From Dictyostelium discoideum (lineage: Eukaryota), in NCBI GenBank assembly GCA_000004695.1, contig CM000154.2, positions 3,648,001 to 3,712,000 of the forward strand: DNA of 64,000 bases. Direction: 5' to 3'. Made by a program: the position numbers and the translations under genes. Of the stretch, positions 5,030-54,135 are shown in pieces. Within the stretch, counting starts at the first letter, position 1. Each line of letters starts with the position of its first letter. Under the pieces are notes generated by a model. That model made no database searches. It was not told the origin of the DNA and saw only the letters and a program-made list of their open reading frames with translations.

Positions 5030-5961
5030 TGTTATATTTACGAGATGAAATGGTCACACTAAAAAAAAAAAAAAATAAAAAAAAATAAAAAAAATTTTTG
5101 GCAATCGAAAAAAAAAAAAAAAAATAAAAAGTGAAAAATAAAAATAAAAATCCTTTAAAATTTACTTTATCTGATCAATTGATGTGCATTTTTTTTTTTT
5201 TTTTTTCTTTCTTTCTTTACAAAGTTTTAATGTTTCTATTACTCTTATTTCTAAATATAGAAAATATTGTAAAAATGAAGTGGAATTAACAAAATATTAA
5301 TAAACGTTTTTCTCGGGAAAATTATAGAAAATAATTGGTTTTATAATCTTTTAATATATAATCTTAATTTAATCTTAAAATGGTGGTGACTTGTAAAATT
5401 ACGTTTTTTTAAACACGAATAAATTTAATAAAACAAAATAAATAAAAACAAATAAAAAAAATAAGAAAACAAAAAGATGTATTTATTTTTTATTTTTTAT
5501 TTTTTATTTTTTTACTTTTTTAAAATTATTATTATTATTATTTTATTTAAATGATATTATGTATAAATACCCCCAAATTTTAATTTTTAATTTTTATTTT
5601 TTTATTTTTATTTTTTTTTGATTTAATAATAACCTAATCTCTATTTGAATATCTTGGAAGTTTGGCTCTTTTTTCCTCCTAATTATTTATAATAAAAATA
5701 AAAATAAAAAAGAAGTTAATAAGTTTAGTAGTTTTTTTTATTTCCCAAATAAAATGGAAAAAAATAAAAAAATATAAAAAAAAAAAAAAGAAAAGAAAAA
5801 ATTGGTAATCAAACCTATTAGTATTTTCCTTTTTCATTCATTCACTTTTTTTTCTATTTTTATTTGTTTCTTATTTTTTTGTTTTGATTTATCCTTTTTC
5901 TTTTTTTTTTTTATAAAATAGTTTTTATACGTATCAAATTTATTAAAATAGTTGTACTTAC

Positions 5962-6657
5962 CATTGAGACAAAATCGTCATTATATATTAAGTGTGGTTC
6001 TTTCTGTGATTGCGAAATTTGTGGATTTACAACAACAGCAGGAGCAGATTTTAATACTGATGTTTGTTTTTTCTGTTGTGATTGTTGATATTGTTCAAAT
6101 GATTGTAAATTTGTGTCATTATTGGTATTATCATTATTATTTTCATTATTATTTTCATCATTATTAGTATTATTGTTGTTATTATTAATATTATTATTTG
6201 TATTATTATTGTTATTATTAATATTATTTGTATTGTTATTATTATTATTTTCCAAGTTATTACTATTGTTTGGTTCTTGTGGTTTTAATGGGGCTTGTTG
6301 ATTTGTTACATTATTTAATTTATCGGAAGGTGATGTTATTGAGCTAGGTGTTTGTGGTGATGTATTAGATGGTGGCGGAGGTGAATTATCAGTATTAATA
6401 TTATTTATATTGTTACTATTTATATTATTGTTGATATTATTATTATTACTATTGATATTGTTATTATTATTATTGTTATTATTATTATTATTTGGTGATG
6501 GTATATTTGAAAAAGGTGGTTTTGGATACATTGATGGTGGTAATCTTGGTGGTTGTGGTGATTGCATTGCAAATGAAATTGCCCCTTTTGGTTGTGGGGA
6601 ATTTTGATGATACGGTGGAATACCACCATTATTATTATTTAAATGTGGTGGTGGATA
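5962..6657 (-). CDS. Pro/Asn-rich low-complexity protein, internal exon(s) only; both 5' and 3' ends unresolved
   Basis: The minus frame is open from 6657 to 5911 (..NNNNGGIPPYHQNSPQPKGAISFAMQSPQPPRLPPSMYPKPPF..polyN..SVLKSAPAVVVNPQISQSQKEPHLIYNDDFVSM). A canonical GTAAGT donor sits at 5961-5956 directly after ..DFVSM, so there is at least one more 3' exon, which I could not locate. A possible 5' splice is AG 6586-6585 from the duplicated elp3-type first exon at 6760..6817 (see findings). Confidence 0.4.
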
Positions 6658-6896
6658 TTATTTTTACCATCTTTTTTTTAATTTTAAAAATTGAAATTTT
6701 AATATGTTAATTGGATAATAAAAAAAAAAAAAAAAAAAAAATTTAAAAAAAAGACTTACAAATTGGTTTAGCGCCTGCTTTTTTTGAAACAGGTTTTGGG
6801 TCATTCATTAATGACATTTTTTTTTTTTTTTTATATATACAATTACTATTTATTTATAAATATAAAATAATTTATAAAAAAAAATGTTGAAAATAA
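6655..6896 (-). repeat. Inverted-repeat copy A of the elp3 5' module (promoter-proximal sequence, ATG, 58-nt exon 1, intron 1 and first 10 nt of exon 2), minus orientation; abuts the assembly gap
   Basis: The reverse complement of 6655..6896 matches 8225..8470 almost exactly. It includes atgtcattaatgaatgacccaa[a/g]acctgtttcaaaaaaagcaggcgctaaacca[a/g]tttGTAAGTC, the whole AT-rich intron, and ...aaaagATGGTAAAAATA. Only 2 mismatches fall in the 58-nt exon. Copy A exon is 6760..6817 ([19 protein letters not shown]) with donor GT 6759-6758. Confidence 0.85.
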
Positions 6897-6996
6897 NNNN
6901 NNNNNNNNNNNNNNNNNNNNNNNNNNNNNNNNNNNNNNNNNNNNNNNNNNNNNNNNNNNNNNNNNNNNNNNNNNNNNNNNNNNNNNNNNNNNNNNN

Positions 6997-7670
6997 TTCA
7001 CCACCACCACCATTAAAATGATTTGGTGGCCAACCATTGTTGGTATTTGGTGGCCAACCACCACTATTTGGAGGCATTTTATGATACATTTGTGATGGTG
7101 GGCCATGATATGGTGGTTGATGATGTGGTTGGTGGTGTGGTTGGTGATGTGGTTGAAAATGTTGTGGTGGCATACATAGTAGAGGTGGTTGATTATTAAA
7201 CCACCACCACCTCCTCCCCCATATCCACTATTATATCCATTATATCCACTATTCTGATTCATATGACCACCATATTGCTGTTGTTGTTGTTGATATTGTT
7301 GATTATTCATATTATTCATATTATTCATATTGTTATTATTATTATCAAATCTAGCTTTTTTATTGTTATTATTGTTATTGTTATTATTATTATCATCTTC
7401 TTCTTCATCAGGTATACCTTCCATACCATAAATTTCATATTCTGGTGAATCTCTACCAGGTTTTGCATTTGGTACTTTAGTTAAAATTTCTTTATGTACA
7501 GTTTGAACATGAACTACCATACCACTTGCACTTGCTAATTTTCTATTACAATGATTACATTTAAAATGTTTTGCTTTTTGATGTTGAATTAAAATCTTTT
7601 CATCTTCAAATACTCTCTCACAATACCAACAATAGGGTTTTTCTTGTGTTGATCTTTTCTTTTTACCCAT
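6997..7670 (-). CDS. ZNF207/BuGZ-like C2H2 zinc finger protein; 3' end lost in the assembly gap 6897-6996; apparent 1-nt frameshift near 7194-7199
   Basis: ATG at 7670. [93 protein letters not shown] matches human ZNF207 ([86 protein letters not shown]). After [13 protein letters not shown] the plausible continuation ([61 protein letters not shown] 6850..7173) lies in another frame. No AG dinucleotide lies between them, so this is not an intron. Confidence 0.75.
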
Positions 7671-8224
7671 TCTAAATTAATTTTTAAATAAAAAAAAAAA
7701 ATATATATATATAAATTGTTTAAAGATGAAAACACAAAAATGATAAAATAAAAATTTTCAAAAAAAAAAAAATAAAAAAAAAAAAAGAAATTTTCAAAAT
7801 AAAAAAAAAATAAAAAAAATAAAAAAAAAATAAAAAATAAAAAAAAAAAAGTATCTAATTTATTAAAAAAATAATAATATTATTATTTATATTATTATTT
7901 ATATTTTTTTTCAATAATAATAAATTAGTACTTTAAAAGATAATCAAAATAGAAAAAAAAAAAAAAAAAAAAAAAAATTGAAAAAAAAAAAAAATTAAAA
8001 AAATTAAAAATAAAAATAAGGATATTTATTAAAAAAAGGTTTATAAAAAAAAAAAAAAGGAAATTAATTGGTCAAAATAAGGGCAGGGTTTTATTCTTAA
8101 ATTTTTACTAAAAAAAACCCAAAAATAAAAATTTTTTTTTTTTTAATTAAAATTTAAATTAAAAAAAGGAAAAAAAAAAAAAAAAAATCGAAAAATTCAA
8201 AATTTTTTTTTTTTTTTTTTTTTT

Positions 8225-8470: not shown

Positions 8471-10157
8471 AATTTACAAAAACTGTTGGTGAAATTGTAA
8501 ATGCATTAATTAATGCTTATAAAGAAGGTAAAAAAGTGAATTTATTAAAGATTAAAACAGAATTAGCAGCAAAGAATTCATTATCAGATCAACCAAAATC
8601 TGTTGATATTATATCAGCAATTCCAGAATCATATAAAAATACATTATTACCATTATTAAAAGCAAAACCAGTTAGAACAGCATCAGGTATTGCAGTTGTT
8701 GCAGTTATGTGTAAACCACATCGTTGCCCACATTTAGCAATGACTGGTAATATTTGTGTATATTGTCCAGGTAAGTTTTTTAATAATAATAAAAAAAAAA
8801 AAAAAAAAAGAAAAAAGAAACTAATAATAAATAAAAATAATAAAAATAAATAGGTGGACCAGATTCAGATTTTGAATATTCAACACAATCATATACAGGT
8901 TATGAACCAACATCAATGAGAGCAATTAGAGCACGTTATAATCCATTTTTACAAACACGTCATCGTATTGATCAATTAAAACGTTTAGGACATAATGTTG
9001 AAAAGGTAGAATTCATTATTATGGGTGGCACATTTATGTCATTACCATCAGATTATAGGGATTATTTCATTCGTAATTTACATGATGCCTTATCGGGTCA
9101 TACATCAAATAATGTTGCAGAAGCAGTTAAATATTCAGAGCAAAGTAATGTTAAATGTGTTGGTATTACAATTGAAACACGTCCAGATCATTGTTTAAAA
9201 CTTCATCTTAGTAATATGTTAACCTATGGTTGTACACGTTTGGAGATTGGTGTACAAAGTGTTTTCGAAGATATTGCACGTGATACAAATCGTGGTCATA
9301 CAGTGCGTGCCGTATTGGAGTCATTTCAATTGGCAAAGGATAGTGGTTTCAAAGTGGTTGCACATATGATGCCAGATTTACCAAATATGGGTATGGAGAG
9401 AGATATCTATGGTTTTATGGAGTTTTTTGAGAATCCAGCATTTAGAGCTGACGGTTTGAAAATCTATCCAACTTTGGTAATTCGTGGTACAGGTCTTTAT
9501 GAACTTTGGAAAACTGGAACCTATAAAAATTATTCACCCGATTCTTTGGTGGATTTAATCGCAAAGGTATTGGCTTTGGTACCACCTTGGACTCGTATCT
9601 ATCGTATTCAAAGAGATATTCCAATGCCATTGGTTACAAGTGGTGTCGAGTATGGTAATTTACGTGAACTTTGTCTTGCTCGTATGAAAGATTTTGGTAC
9701 AAAATGTAGAGATGTTCGTACTCGTGAAGTTGGTATTCAAGAGGTACATCATAAAATTAAACCAGATCAAGTCGAATTAATTCGTCGTGATTACGTTGCC
9801 AATGGTGGTTGGGAAACATTTTTAAGTTTTGAAGATCCAAAACAAGATATTCTCATTGGTTTACTTCGTCTTAGAAAATGTTCAGAAACTTCTTTTAGAC
9901 CAGAGTTAAAGGAAAATTGTTCAATCGTTAGAGAATTACACGTTTATGGTAGTGTAGTTGGTATTCATAATCGTGATCCAACTAAATTTCAACATCAAGG
10001 TTATGGTACTTTATTAATGGAAGAAGCTGAAAGAATTGCAAGAGAAGAACATGGTTCAATTAAATTGGCAGTTATCGCTGGTGTTGGTACTCGTCATTAT
10101 TATAGAAAATTAGGTTATGAATTAGATGGTGTTTACGTTTCAAAATATCTTGGTTAA
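8306..10157 (+). CDS. elp3: Elongator complex protein 3 (radical-SAM plus GNAT acetyltransferase), join(8306..8363,8453..8770,8854..10157)
   Basis: Exon 1 [19 protein letters not shown] with donor GTAAGT 8364-8369 (phase 1). Exon 2 runs from 8453 (acceptor AG 8451-8452): ..[98 protein letters not shown], donor GTAAGT 8771-8776 (phase 1). Exon 3 runs from 8854: [42 protein letters not shown]...[30 protein letters not shown]. About 75% identical to human ELP3 over the full length. Confidence 0.9.
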
Positions 10158-10886: not shown

Positions 10887-10960
10887 GGTCGGATGGTGTA
10901 GTCGGTTATCACGGTTGCTTTACACGCAACAGGTCTCGAGTTCGATCCTCGGTCGGATCA
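10887..10960 (+). tRNA. tRNA-Val (anticodon UAC), copy 1
   Basis: Cloverleaf: acceptor GGTCGGA/TCGGATC (one G-G mismatch at 5:68, one G-U), D-arm GTGT-AGTCGGTTA-TCAC, anticodon stem GTTGC/GCAAC with loop TTTACAC (U33, anticodon TAC 10921-10923, A37). Variable AGGTC, T-arm TCGAG-TTCGATC-CTCGG, discriminator A. A T5 run follows at 10965-10969. An identical copy lies 1400 bp downstream. Confidence 0.75.
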
Positions 10961-12049: not shown

Positions 12050-12486
12050 AAAGTAAATGTAACGAAAGTGGTAAATTGATCTGTAATTATTTATTTAGGA
12101 ATTTAAATTCTCTTGATATTAAAATTTAAATATATTTTTATTTAATACTTTTTTAGGCATATAATTTCTTTATTATTATTAATGTAAGGGATAATGCACC
12201 CAGAAGACTGAAGTGGGTACTGAGAATCGAACTTACGACCTTAAAGAAGCGATTCTGGCAAACCATTAAAATTCGATAGTTAATATGGTCGGATGGTGTA
12301 GTCGGTTATCACGGTTGCTTTACACGCAACAGGTCTCGAGTTCGATCCTCGGTCGGATCATATCTTTTTATTTAATTTTCTTTTTTTAAATCTATCTTAT
12401 TTTTGTTCTCTGAGAAATTTGCTATTGATTCATGCAAGTTTCACCTATTTTTATTTTGGTTTGAGCATCTATATATATATTTTTTT

Positions 12487-45170: not shown

Positions 45171-45575
45171 CTTTTGTTTTGATTTTGAAACTTTTTATTG
45201 AATAATTATTATTATTATTATTATTATTATGTGTTTTATAAAGTTGCTATGAAAATTTATTAATAAATTTTTTTTTTTTTTTTAGAAGATGAATTTGAAG
45301 TGGAAATTAAAAAAATTAAAAATTAAAAAAAAATAAAAAATAAAAAAAAAATAAAAATAAAAAATTGGATGTGCGTAATTCCAACTTGTCAAATTCATCT
45401 CAAAAAAATTATTAATATTTATGTTATTCTTTAAAAATTTATTTTTAGTTTGTTTAAATATTTTAAAATAAATAAAATCATGATTAATTTACAAAAAAAA
45501 TTAAAATTATTCCAAGTTTATAAATAAATGAAAAATCGTAATTTATTTAAATATTAATTTTTAATTTTCATCAAA

Positions 45576-45648
45576 GCCCGTTTAGCAAAGTTGGAATTGC
45601 GGCAGCCTTCTAAGCTGCAGGTCGTGGGATCGAGACCCACAATGGGTG
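45576..45648 (+). tRNA. tRNA-Arg (anticodon UCU) with atypical T-loop; T5 terminator at 45653-45657 and external B box at 45682-45690
   Basis: GCCCGTT-TA-GCAA-AGTTGGAA-TTGC-G-GCAGC-CTTCTAA-GCTGC-AGGTC-GTGGG-ATCGAGA-CCCAC-AATGGGT-G. The anticodon stem and T-stem are perfect, U33 is present, and the anticodon is TCT (45609-45611). The acceptor stem has two G-U pairs. The T-loop reads ATCGAGA (A at position 54) where the human tRNA-Arg-TCT T-arm is GTGGGTTCGAGTCCCAC. Downstream aGGTTCGATGtc matches the dictyostelid external B box (GGTTCGAATCC-like). Confidence 0.6.
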
Positions 45649-45681
45649 AAACTTTTTAAAGGTGTACCAATAATGGTCGCA

Positions 45682-45690
45682 GGTTCGATG
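45682..45690 (+). promoter_or_regulatory. External B box (ex-B) downstream of tRNA-Arg
   Basis: GGTTCGATG lies 34 nt after the tRNA 3' end. A duplicated B-box-like element downstream of the gene body is a known feature of many Dictyostelium tRNA genes. Confidence 0.5.
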
Positions 45691-45764
45691 TCATATTAAA
45701 TCCAATTTATGTAAAGATCTTGGAAACGACCCTTATGGTCATCTCTTTATTGTAAAAAAAAAAA

Positions 45765-47080
45765 CCACAACAACACTACTTAAACCGCACCGCGATCAAG
45801 AGGATACAAGATACACGTGAAAAGTAATTCATCCTTTTCTATCCTTAATCTCGGTCAATTTTAACCAATCTTTCAAAAAAAATCACCAATCCACCACGAT
45901 CTACAGATCTAACTTACCAAATCGCCGATTCAAAGGAATCCCATCGAGATGAATTCCTACGCAGACGCGGCTAAAATGGCCAACCCCTCCACCCATATGG
46001 ACGAGGCATCAGAGAACTTCATTAAGGAATTCTCCACAAAAACAGCAGAGATAAAGGAGACCTACCCCAAATTATCAATAGGCCTCAAAGACATCTCCAA
46101 ATACTGCGAGACCATATTGAACATGACTGCTCTCTCAACCTACGAGAAAAACAACGGATTCTACCCAATTACACTCGAATTCCCCAAAATGGATCTCATG
46201 GGGTTAGAAGAAATGAGAAAAACACTCTCAAACTACGATATCCCAATCGACAAGATATACATAGGCAAAGGAACTAGAAAAACGATCCACCTGATGATTA
46301 AAAACGAACAATCTCTCCTAAATATCATTAGAGATAGAAGCAAATTGGGAACCTTCATCACCTCCAGTAGAGACTACCACGTCCTCACAGGAAGAGTAAG
46401 AATTCCAAGAGAAAAGGCAGGAATAGTGGACGCCCTCATCAAAACTGCCTTTGCAGAAGAAATACCCTATGCAATATACCATACTATATACTCCACCGAC
46501 CACCTCCTAGTATTCGGTCTAATAGAATGCAAAATAGGCGATCAAATGAAATCTGGCCAACACAATACAGAAATCGCCAACTTTACCATCAGAACGGCCA
46601 CCAAAACCTACTCCTCACAAAAGAAAAATAAGAAAGTAGAGTCAAACAACACGGAAGAACCATTAGAAGATGAGATGACAGATGATCCTCCCAACATCCA
46701 AAACAGGATAGCAATCAAATCCTCTCAACCAAAACCACAACAACAAACAAACAACNNNNNNNNNNNNNNNNNNNNNNNNNNNNNNNNNNNNNNNNNNNNN
46801 NNNNNNNNNNNNNNNNNNNNNNNNNNNNNNNNNNNNNNNNNNNNNNNNNNNNNNNCTTCAACGATCAAGCTAAGAAAAACAACAGCTAATTACTATTGTA
46901 TTCCAGAATCATCTCTCCCAAATATTATATCTTTTGATCAATTCATATGATTAAAATAACCCTTCAGCTTAAATGATAAGCCTTTAAATAAATATTAAAT
47001 AAAACTCGTATTAACACAGATGGACATATATCAATCTTGTTAATCTAATATTAAAAAAAAAAAAAAAAAAAAAAAATATT
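45765..47080 (+). mobile_element. TRE3-type (tRNA 3'-flank targeted) non-LTR retrotransposon, internally collapsed by assembly gap 46756-46855; ends in oligo(A)
   Basis: Base composition jumps from under 20% GC to about 40% at 45765, which is 117 bp downstream of tRNA-Arg and in the same orientation. ORF 45949..46755+ (MNSYADAAKMANPSTHMDEASENFIKEFSTKTAEIKETYPKLSIGLKDISKYCETILNMT...) has GC-rich, non-host codon usage (ATGGACGAGGCATCAGAGAACTTCATTAAGGAATTCTCC) and runs into the N-gap. After the gap a non-AT-rich tail ends in A23 at 47057-47079. The position and orientation relative to the tRNA fit the integration pattern of Dictyostelium TRE3 elements. Confidence 0.55.
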
Positions 47081-47826
47081 GTAAAAAAACATTAGAATTT
47101 ATAAATAAAACTATTAATGGACAAACAATAAAAAAAAAAAAAAAAAAAAATATTGTTATTCCATAAATAGTCTCCTTTGACCAATTAATTATATTGTAAA
47201 ATAATTTCATTATTTAATTTATCTATTTAATTCATTTAATTTTACCAACATATTTGAAACTGGATCTTAAAAAAGAAAAAAATAATTATTATAATTAGAA
47301 TAATACACTATATTTTAAAATTAAAATATAATGTAATTATTTTTAATTTGTAAAGTTTACTTTTTCCCCAATTTTTTTTTTTTTTATTTATTTCTCAATT
47401 TCCTAATACCTTTGAAAACTATTCCTTTTTCAAGTGTATTAATTAGTGGGGAATAATTAATAAAAACTATTTCTTTTTCAAATGTATCTAATTACACTGG
47501 AAAAAAAAAGAAATTAATAAATTTTATTATAAACAAATAAATTTAGTTATATACGTGGATGATTCCACAAAATAAATTGACGAAATTAGGATGGATTTTT
47601 CAGTTTTAAAAAAAAAAAAAAAAATTAAAAAAAAAAAAAAAAATACAATAATTTTTACGTGGAAAATTCTAAATAAAATAATTAATAAAAATTTAAATTC
47701 ATACTTAAAAAAAAAAAAAATAAATAAATAAAAAAAAAAAGAAATTTTAATTTCCAAAGAAAATTAATATCAGTCCTTTTACCAAAATTTTTTTATTTTC
47801 ACTTTTTTATTTTTTTTTAAAATTCG

Positions 47827-52825: not shown

Positions 52826-54135
52826 ATGGACAGTAATTTAATTAATTGGCTAAAAAAGTGTTCTGAATCTATATTAGATTCTCTGATAATAATTTCAAGG
52901 AATGAAATATTTATATCAAAAGAAAATCTTATTGATTTTTGCAAATCAAAATGGTAAAATATATATATTTATGTTTAAATAAAAAAATAAATAAATAAAT
53001 AAATAAATAATTTTAATATTTATTAACTATAATTATAAATTTTAAATAAAAAAAAAACAAAAATTTAAAGTTATAAAAAAATTGGATTAGGTGAAGATCA
53101 ATTTAGATTATTAAAAAATGAAATATCAATATCATTAGAAAATCATTTTAGAAATGAAAATGAATTAATATTATATAAATATGAACCCGTTAAAGAAATA
53201 AATTTAAAATTTGAAACAACAATTAGAGAATTGATTGAAAATAATATAAAATTAAATCAAATGAGGTTTATTAAAAATAATAATGAAAATAATGAAAATA
53301 ATAATAATAATAATAATGAAAATAATAATAATAATAATGAAGTTAGAATTGATTTAAATAAATATATTCAAAATGGTAATGATAATAATAATAAAAATAA
53401 TAATATTAAAGAAGATTCAGAAATTCAAAAACCAAATAATGAAATTTTAGTTATTGAATTAATACCAAGAAAATGTGATTCCTATTTTTATTATGAAATT
53501 CCATTAATAATTGCAGGTTGTATGACAGCAAAAGAATATTCAAATTTTATTAAAACAATTAATAGAGCCTATAGTGGATATTGGATATTATTTTTAATTT
53601 ATTCTTCGTATGCAATTTCAATTTTAGCCATTGTAATAACAATACCATATTACAAAGCATTTCCAATTTGGTTAATATTTTTTGGTGCAATGATTTTATT
53701 TTCAATATTTCTTTTAATTTATAGATTATTTTTAAGAGTAATTATTAAAAAAAAAGAATTTTTTATTTTTATTTCTATTTAGTTTTTATTTTATTTTATT
53801 TTTATTTTGTATATTAATCAATTTTTAATTTAAATAATAATAATAATANNNNNNNNNNNNNNNNNNNNNNNNNNNNNNNNNNNNNNNNNNNNNNNNNNNN
53901 NNNNNNNNNNNNNNNNNNNNNNNNNNNNNNNNNNNNNNNNNNNNNNNNATAGAAAATTATTGAAAAATCAGTACCACTTGAATTTCATATTGTTTATAAA
54001 AAGAAAAAGTTCCCTCAAACTAAAAATACAATGACAATGATAATTCACTATTTTTATAACTCTAAAAATACAAATGTTACAAATAATATTTACAATGAAG
54101 AATCTCAAATGAAAATTAATGAAATTGATGTTTAA
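52826..54135 (+). CDS. Small 2-TM membrane protein, paralog A of a 3-gene tandem family: join(52826..52953,53071..53737,~53953..54135); intron 2 contains assembly gap 53849-53948
   Basis: Exon 1 MDSNLINWLKKCSESILDSLIIISRNEIFISKENLIDFCKSK(W), donor TG|GTAAAA 52954 (phase 2). Acceptor TTTAAAG 53070. Exon 2 CYKKIGLGEDQFRLLKNE...ELIPRKCDSYFYYEIPLIIAGCMTAKEYSNFIKTINRAYSGYWILFLIYSSYAISILAIVITIPYYKAFPIWLIFFGAMILFSIFLLIYRLFLR, donor AGA|GTAATT 53738. Probable exon 3 ..KIIEKSVPLEFHIVYKKKKFPQTKNTMTMIIHYFYNSKNT..* is homologous to the terminal exons of paralogs B and C. Confidence 0.55.

Follow-up and report, generated by a model that had tools for sequence, protein, structure and literature searches.

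A TRE3-family retrotransposon, probably TRE3-A, behind a tRNA-Arg(UCU) gene of Dictyostelium discoideum, with its interior collapsed into an assembly gap

Introduction

In Dictyostelium discoideum, 61% of the tRNA genes carry a TRE retroelement (PMC5006619). The locus considered here lies in a stretch of 64,000 nt of contig CM000154.2 (assembly GCA_000004695.1, positions 3,648,001 to 3,712,000 of the forward strand), referred to below as the window, which is very AT-rich (GC content 0.21) and whose proteins match D. discoideum. It contains a tRNA-Arg(UCU) gene and, downstream of it, the two ends of a retroelement separated by an assembly gap of 100 N. With a probability of about 0.92, this is a full-length non-LTR (without long terminal repeats, LINE-type) retrotransposon of the TRE3 family, most probably TRE3-A (formerly Tdd-3), located behind a functional tRNA-Arg(UCU) gene and with its interior collapsed into the gap.

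The closest described systems are well characterized. TRE3 elements occur ∼40–150 bp downstream of tRNA genes and in the same orientation (PMC5911963), with distances of 14–228 bp observed for TRE3-A (PMC5006619). They can use an internal or an external B box, and are built of two open reading frames (ORFs) whose domains are arranged as apurinic/apyrimidinic endonuclease, reverse transcriptase and zinc finger (APE-RT-ZF), and of an oligo(A) end (PMC5911963; PMC5006619). TRE3-A requires a −1 frameshift (PMC5911963). Consensus lengths are 5229 bp for TRE3-A, 5279 bp for TRE3-B and 4734 bp for TRE3-C, with a 1559-bp partial sequence for TRE3-D; TRE3-A is the most numerous of the TRE3 elements (67 copies, 13 of them full-length), and TRE3-B counts 43 copies (PMC5006619). 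The element in the window resembles TRE3-A in its place ∼100 bp downstream of a tRNA gene whose orientation it shares, as well as in its two ORFs with ORF2 in the −1 frame, its order of endonuclease-like region, reverse transcriptase and zinc finger, its poly(A), its length close to 5229 bp and its high copy number. It differs by ∼21 extra nucleotides at the 5′ junction; no other difference is demonstrated by the copies that were aligned.

Two further systems share features with this element. TRE5-A (DRE) lives in the same host, has two ORFs, the APE-RT-ZF order and a poly(A), and takes the RNA polymerase III (Pol III) complex as a landmark (PMC5006619; PMC5911963). In contrast to the downstream, co-oriented element described here, TRE5 inserts ∼50 bp upstream and in the opposite orientation, and has modular A/B/C untranslated regions (UTRs) and an unrelated ORF1 (PMC5006619; PMC5911963). 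Skipper-2 (DGLT-P), a retrotransposon with long terminal repeats (LTRs), is directed to the same stretch behind Dictyostelium tRNA genes. It carries an integrase and a chromodomain besides its LTRs, however, and lies 8–23 bp downstream in D. discoideum, whereas the present element has a poly(A) tail, no LTR and a reverse transcriptase of the non-LTR type.

The retroelement and its ends

The locus was reached in other assemblies through the neighbouring S28 peptidase gene. Locus L008 belongs to a gap-free D. discoideum assembly (GCA_054883475.1), L009 to another D. discoideum isolate, L005 to D. cf. discoideum and L010 to D. citrinum; L006 and L007 are from D. firmibasis and D. purpureum. Other copies of the element stand at loci L001, L002 and L003. 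The parts of the element in the window are as follows.

45748–45760, no strand: target-site duplication, 5′ copy TATTGTAAAAAAA, an exact 13/13 match to 47077–47089
45761–45781, + strand: extra 5′-junction nucleotides (∼21), AAAA followed by CCACAACAACACTACTT, absent from other copies
45782–46755, + strand: 5′ part of the TRE3 element (probably TRE3-A), with the 5′ UTR at 45782–45948 and ORF1 codons 1–269, starting with the ATG at 45949
46756–46855, no strand: assembly gap of 100 N replacing 4056 bp (L008 4912–8967)
46856–47052, + strand: 3′ part of the TRE3 element, with the final 30 codons of ORF2 and the stop (to 46950), then a short AT-rich 3′ UTR
47053–47076, + strand: poly(A) tail of 24 A
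47077–47089, no strand: target-site duplication, 3′ copy TATTGTAAAAAAA, an exact 13/13 match to 45748–45760

Position of the target-site duplication sets the insertion point 99–112 bp downstream of tRNA-Arg(UCU), on the + strand and thus in the same orientation, in keeping with the location rule of TRE3. The 5′ end does not resemble the 3′ end in sequence, and terminal repeats are absent, which, together with the A24 tail and the target-site duplication, is the architecture of a non-LTR element. The 5′ part is 100% identical to L008 and 99.3% identical to positions 7834–8807 of L001, and the 3′ piece is 99.5% identical to L001 12865–13084; the translation that follows the gap, ending in STIKLRKTTANYYCIPESSLPNIISFDQFI*, is that of the ORF2 end of L001. 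At its other side, the ORF1 fragment (269 residues) enters the gap. This fragment is 99% identical to P0001, a 417-residue protein of D. discoideum encoded at L001, whose 90% cluster has 37 members, and its matches are limited to proteins of D. discoideum and D. citrinum; ORF2 falls in a cluster of 79. In the databases, all the matching proteins are named ‘hypothetical protein’. One of them, the AX4 protein DDB_G0289071 (152 residues, partial), matches the ORF1 fragment with 100% identity over the aligned part and may be the annotated stump of the ORF1 at this locus.

The other copies behave alike. At L001, a complete element with ORF1, a reverse transcriptase-bearing ORF2 and poly(A) lies ∼94 bp behind a tRNA-Ser gene in the same orientation. 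The copy at L003 lies 87 bp behind a tRNA-Phe gene, also in the same orientation, and is flanked by a 9-bp target-site duplication (ACGAGAATT), and L002 is a tandem of a truncated and a full copy. Poly(A) tails are A24 in L008 and A32 in L001, with a comparably long A run in L003. Between the tRNA-Ser gene and the full-length TRE3 of L001 (7780–7826), a 38-nt piece of TRE3 3′ UTR is followed by a run of A; it looks like the stump of an earlier, almost wholly 5′-truncated insertion at the same target.

Extra 5′ nucleotides are missing from L001, L002 and L003, where the element opens directly with (A)nCCGTACCGCG, and the alignment to the L001 copy begins at 45782, which is base 22 of the L008 element. 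The first 15 extra nucleotides, AAAACCACAACAACA (45761–45775), are identical to a stretch of ORF1 at 46731–46745 that is also present in L001 at 8783. This repeat could reflect template switching during formation of the 5′ end, or chance in a low-complexity sequence.

The full-length copy in a gap-free assembly

At L008, 4056 bp stand in the place of the Ns. The element there, at L008 3917–9164, comprises 5248 bp plus A24. Its ORF1 is intact, with 417 residues of which the first 269 are the same as those in the window, and ORF2 stays open for 1261 codons. Identity between the window and L008 is 100% throughout the 1585 bp that lead from the prohibitin gene up to the gap; beyond it, identity is 98.7% over an alignment of 1047 bp. 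Both also share the target-site duplication, the extra 5′ nucleotides and the A24 tail. This agreement on the two sides of the gap, together with the shared hallmarks, argues that window and L008 carry the same single insertion. The gap has apparently replaced the interior of a full-length, seemingly coding-competent copy of ∼5.25 kb. As read from L008, the missing content is the remainder of ORF1, the overlap of ORF1 and ORF2 and nearly all of ORF2.

In the gap-free copies L001 and L008, ORF2 has the domain order expected of TRE3: its N-terminus is endonuclease-like, and a reverse transcriptase and then a CCHC finger follow. The reverse transcriptase is clear (Pfam RVT_1, E = 1.1e-33) and a CX2CX10HX4C motif lies near the C-terminus. 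The Exo_endo_phos match spans positions 2–225 of the 225 of the profile, but at E = 0.0018 and 18.5 bits it stays under the Pfam cut-off of 24.5. The open frame of ORF2 is −1 relative to ORF1 and overlaps it by 79–82 nt.

A preliminary description of this DNA, made from the sequence letters, had proposed a position-specific integration of TRE3 type with its interior in an assembly gap, and the 99% match of ORF1, the flank matches of 99.3–99.5%, the complete element of L008 and the published traits of TRE3 bear this out. The switch to a GC content of about 40% that it saw corresponds to 0.41 over 45765–46755, vs 0.18 and 0.14 in the flanks and 0.21 in the whole window. Other details need adjustment. 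The element does lie behind the tRNA gene, but the distance of 117 bp given earlier counts to the first non-A base and not to the insertion point. The poly(A) after the gap is present with 24 A, not 23. Likewise, nearly all of ORF2 has gone into the gap, as had been stated for the whole of it, but its last 30 codons survive on the far side. The 13-bp target-site duplication is an addition to that description.

Subfamily assignment and alternative contents of the gap

The 5227 bp that align between the L008 and L001 copies, and the length of the L001 copy (∼5230 bp without its tail), compare with 5229 bp for TRE3-A. Together with the abundance seen in the cluster sizes (37 and 79) and with an ORF2 in the −1 frame, where frameshifting itself is predicted, this length leads to the name TRE3-A. 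The letter A is thus probable, and rests on length, copy number and frameshift, not on an alignment to a named reference.

The best surviving alternative is that the element belongs to another TRE3 subfamily, for example TRE3-B, which is of similar size. The TRE3-B consensus is only 50 bp longer and represented by 43 copies, and a second ORF1 cluster at 77% identity (P0005) indicates that related subfamilies exist. Nevertheless, this alternative is unlikely: the aligned length agrees almost exactly with that of TRE3-A, no clusters larger than those of ORF1 and ORF2 were seen, which is what the most abundant subfamily should show, and the −1 frameshift is described for TRE3-A (PMC5911963).

Still less probable is that the gap in the strain of the window hides a truncated, rearranged or tandem TRE3 array, the full-length copy of L008 being a strain difference. 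Tandems and truncated copies are common among TRE3 elements, as exemplified by the tandem of L002, by three 3′ fragments in L010 and by the 38-nt fragment preceding the full copy of L001; tandems are also noted in the literature, and window and L008 are different records. Against such an array stand the identity of the two loci on both sides of the gap (complete on the left) and their common target-site duplication, extra 5′ nucleotides and tail. A full-length TRE3 element remains the preferred content of the gap. The third and weakest alternative concerns the tRNA gene and is treated with it below.

Presence and absence in related genomes

L009 and L005 possess the prohibitin gene, the same tRNA-Arg gene, the same external B box and the peptidase gene, and TRE3 is absent from both. 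Their intergenic intervals measure 1812 bp in L009 and 1485 bp in L005, vs 2733 bp plus the 4056 hidden bp in the window. As judged from these assemblies, the TRE3 insertion is specific to one lineage; being polymorphic among isolates, it is therefore fairly recent. No tRNA gene was found at the loci of the S28 peptidase orthologues of D. firmibasis and D. purpureum.

In D. citrinum (L010), the tRNA-Arg(UCU) gene (7288–7360, − strand) occupies the same prohibitin–peptidase interval, in inverted orientation. Downstream of the gene on its strand (6118–7123, − strand) stand three tandem, 5′-truncated 3′ ends of TRE3 with 80–91% identity to the D. discoideum element, and a 400-bp piece of the ORF1/ORF2 region occupies 5712–6118. 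These three truncated ends show that this tRNA-Arg gene has been hit repeatedly, as the literature says of TREs.

The TRE3-free genomes have extra DNA of their own ∼40–50 bp upstream of tRNA-Arg, at 8892–9225 in L005 (∼330 bp) and at 8496–9174 in L009 (∼680 bp). In L005 it opens with a long T run (∼8886–8907), as would a TRE5-type element in the opposite orientation. Sequence related to this upstream DNA (GAATTGGAT..GCAATTGTTAGTTGCTTCTCCTTGAGAT) is found between the tRNA-Phe and tRNA-Ile genes of L004, from ∼4367.

The tRNA-Arg(UCU) gene and its 3′ flank

The gene and its control regions comprise the following features.

45576–45648, + strand: tRNA-Arg(UCU) gene, found by ARAGORN and Rfam and as minimum-free-energy cloverleaf; identical in L005, L008 and L009
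45583–45594, + strand: A box TAGCAAAGTTGG
45626–45637, + strand: internal B box and T-loop region GGGATCGAGACC with A54 at 45629 and A60 at 45635, read from the sequence
45653–45657, + strand: run of five T, read as the Pol III terminator, 4 nt past the tRNA 3′ end
45682–45692, + strand: external B box GGTTCGATGTC (ex-B), 34 nt beyond the 3′ end of the tRNA

ARAGORN calls a tRNA-Arg with anticodon TCT, Rfam (RF00005) gives it 59.2 bits vs a gathering score of 29, and the cloverleaf, with 21 of 21 stem pairs standard, is its minimum-free-energy fold. Its T arm reads GTGGG-ATCGAGA-CCCAC and hence has A at position 54, so that the internal B box GGGATCGAGACC deviates from the canonical GGTTCGANNCC by A for T. 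The D-loop, AGTTGGAA, supplies A20 (45595). A tRNA-Arg(UCU) with A54, followed by a T5 terminator and then by an ex-B box, is what the preliminary description had recognized, and these three features stand as it gave them. Directly 5′ of several tRNA genes (Arg, Phe) is a motif TTTCATCAA(A), seen in the window at 45563–45575, in L003 at 6486–6495 and in L009 at 9206–9218; it fits conserved 5′-flank boxes of Dictyostelium tRNA genes that were reportedly described by Hofmann et al. in 1991.

In the 3′ flank, a run of at least four T also follows the tRNA-Arg(UCU) gene in L005, L009 and L010. The heptamer GGTTCGA occurs once in the 64-kb window, inside the ex-B box, with 0.92 occurrences expected, a count that by itself is not above chance. 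The box gains its meaning from position and conservation: the 11-mer GGTTCGATGTC is the sole long invariant block of the 3′ flank in four Dictyostelium genomes, where the mean column identity is 72%. Similar motifs are located 24–29 nt behind the tRNA-Phe, tRNA-Ser and tRNA-Ile genes of other loci, and about 80% of the tRNA genes of D. discoideum are described as having an ex-B box (PMC5911963). GGTTCGATGTC is thus, in sequence and place, an external B box of the Dictyostelium type, and a putative binding site of TFIIIC. The region around it, GGTCGCAGGTTCGATGTCAT (45677–45696), resembles the variable loop and T arm of a tRNA (compare CGGTCGCAGGTTCGATCCCTGC of tRNA-Ile in L004), and the ex-B box may descend from a partial tRNA duplication.

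A disabling A54 would make this gene a pseudo-tRNA or a degenerate variant that still attracts integration, as had been suggested earlier. A54 replaces a nearly universal T of the T-loop and B box. T54 is found in all the other tRNAs of the Dictyostelium loci examined, which all read (G/A)GTTCGA, and in all 81 metagenomic tRNA-Arg(UCU) genes with the same anticodon arm; the latter serve as a control only, many having an encoded CCA end and being read as mostly bacterial, with no dictyostelid relatives among them. A metagenome scan for this tRNA with position 54 left free gave no match.

Constraint on the gene speaks otherwise. Besides the high Rfam score and the intact pairs, the gene agrees at 73 of 73 nt between the window, L005, L008 and L009, in a setting of intergenic DNA that is 74–90% identical. 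Five positions differ in the D. citrinum gene, and four of these amount to two compensatory pair changes (6:67 from U–A to G–U and 50:64 from U–A to G–C) that keep all 21 pairs standard; the fifth is G59A in the T-loop, which becomes AUCGAAA, and A20, A54 and A60 are kept. With two distinct sequences to compare, a shuffle control has no weight here, and what counts is how the five changes fall. Conservation extends to the terminator and the ex-B box. B boxes with A54 are functional in the initiator tRNA genes of eukaryotes. With a gene unchanged across three diverged genomes and compensated in D. citrinum, a pseudo-tRNA is the least probable of the three alternatives and the earlier suggestion is not supported. 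Cloverleaf, boxes, terminator and constraint point to a functional elongator gene, whose expression, processing and aminoacylation are predicted.

An initiator-like elbow in an elongator tRNA

The combination of A20, A54 and A60 is the elbow signature of eukaryotic initiator tRNAs, and reviews call it rare in elongators, especially when the three residues occur together. Thus, tRNA-Arg(UCU) is akin to initiator tRNA-Met in these three positions. It differs in its anticodon UCU, in a G1–U72 pair instead of A1–U72, and in the presence of N17. Its anticodon stem has A–U at 29:41, G–C at 30:40 and C–G at 31:39, and not the three G29–31:C39–41 pairs of the initiators. By these features tRNA-Arg(UCU) is an elongator, not an initiator. 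Presumably it decodes AGA, the favoured arginine codon of the AT-rich D. discoideum genome. It is possible, if on balance doubtful, that the unusual part of this locus is the tRNA and not the retroelement, the tRNA-Arg(UCU) of the D. discoideum group being a functional elongator with A20, A54 and A60.

Proposed integration

The sequence exhibits the anatomy of the element, its poly(A), target-site duplication, orientation and distance, the same behaviour of other copies and a lineage-specific presence. From this anatomy and from published work on TRE and LINE (long interspersed nuclear element) retrotransposons, a route of integration can be proposed. The RNA and proteins of the element would be drawn to the Pol III transcription complex, that is, to a tRNA gene bound by TFIIIC and TFIIIB, with TFIIIC on the internal B box and/or on the ex-B box 34 nt downstream as the landmark. 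The ORF2 endonuclease would then nick the DNA ∼55–70 bp past the ex-B box, and target-primed reverse transcription would start on the poly(A) tail. The target-site duplication would result from a second nick with a stagger of 13 bp, and the ∼17–21 extra nucleotides would be added at the 5′ junction, either untemplated or by a template switch.

Several points weigh against the reading of the locus as a TRE3-A insertion guided by the tRNA gene. L008 is a record separate from the window, so that the gap content of the sequenced clone is deduced from the identity of the flanks. The name TRE3-A is deduced from length, copy number and frameshift. The endonuclease falls below the Pfam threshold, and a PDB sequence search with the N-terminus of ORF2 gave chance matches only (interferon gamma). 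No base-exact empty site was found in L005 and L009, where the sequence around the site is too diverged. Finally, the presumed targeting through TFIIIC and the B boxes rests on the literature.

Other features of the window

One segment directly behind the element is of uncertain nature.

47090–47150, + strand: 40 unique nt, A21 and a third TATTGT, immediately behind the 3′ copy of the target-site duplication

This segment may be an older, heavily 5′-truncated insert with its poly(A), or just AT-rich spacer. It is present in the window and L008, with no further copy at any locus examined, and TATTGT occurs five times in 1.9 kb, so the short repeat after A21 may be due to chance. The adjoining 47151–47350 was tried as an older, diverged 3′ end of TRE3 and rejected, its local alignment score being 26 vs a shuffle mean of 26.9. 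Similarly, an Rfam match to Y RNA at 47420–47507 (20.6 bits vs a gathering score of 38, E = 0.58) was treated as chance.

Two identical tRNA-Val(UAC) genes (10887–10960 and 12287–12360) are separated by 1.4 kb and resemble each other in their 3′ flanks, as a local duplication might leave them. Both reach 53 bits in a local Rfam run; the run over the whole window at the gathering threshold missed them, a filter effect rather than a fault in the genes. No TRE3 piece was found near either gene. Two further gaps of 100 N (6897–6996 and 53849–53948) are flanked by AT-rich spacer, and the first also by repetitive coding sequence; no retroelement sequence adjoins them.

Significance

The arrangement of the retroelement is of a well-described kind, and the locus is resolved by newer, gap-free assemblies. 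Insertions of TRE3 targeted to tRNA genes are a textbook feature of D. discoideum, and as a retroelement this one matters little. In practical terms, however, the 100-N gap hides 4056 bp, and the partial ORF1 is a piece of a transposon gene rather than a host gene. As the copy in L008 is full-length with intact ORFs, it is potentially active.

A conserved elongator with A20, A54 and A60 is of modest interest, and would be a natural test case for the role of the elbow outside initiation. If tRNA-Arg(UCU) is indeed such an elongator, it might, lacking T54, depend on 1-methyladenosine at position 58 (m1A58) as initiator tRNA does, and its off-consensus B box GGGATCGAGACC might make transcription lean on the canonical ex-B box downstream, the same landmark that TRE3 is thought to use. 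This locus could therefore show whether ex-B boxes back up weak internal B boxes.

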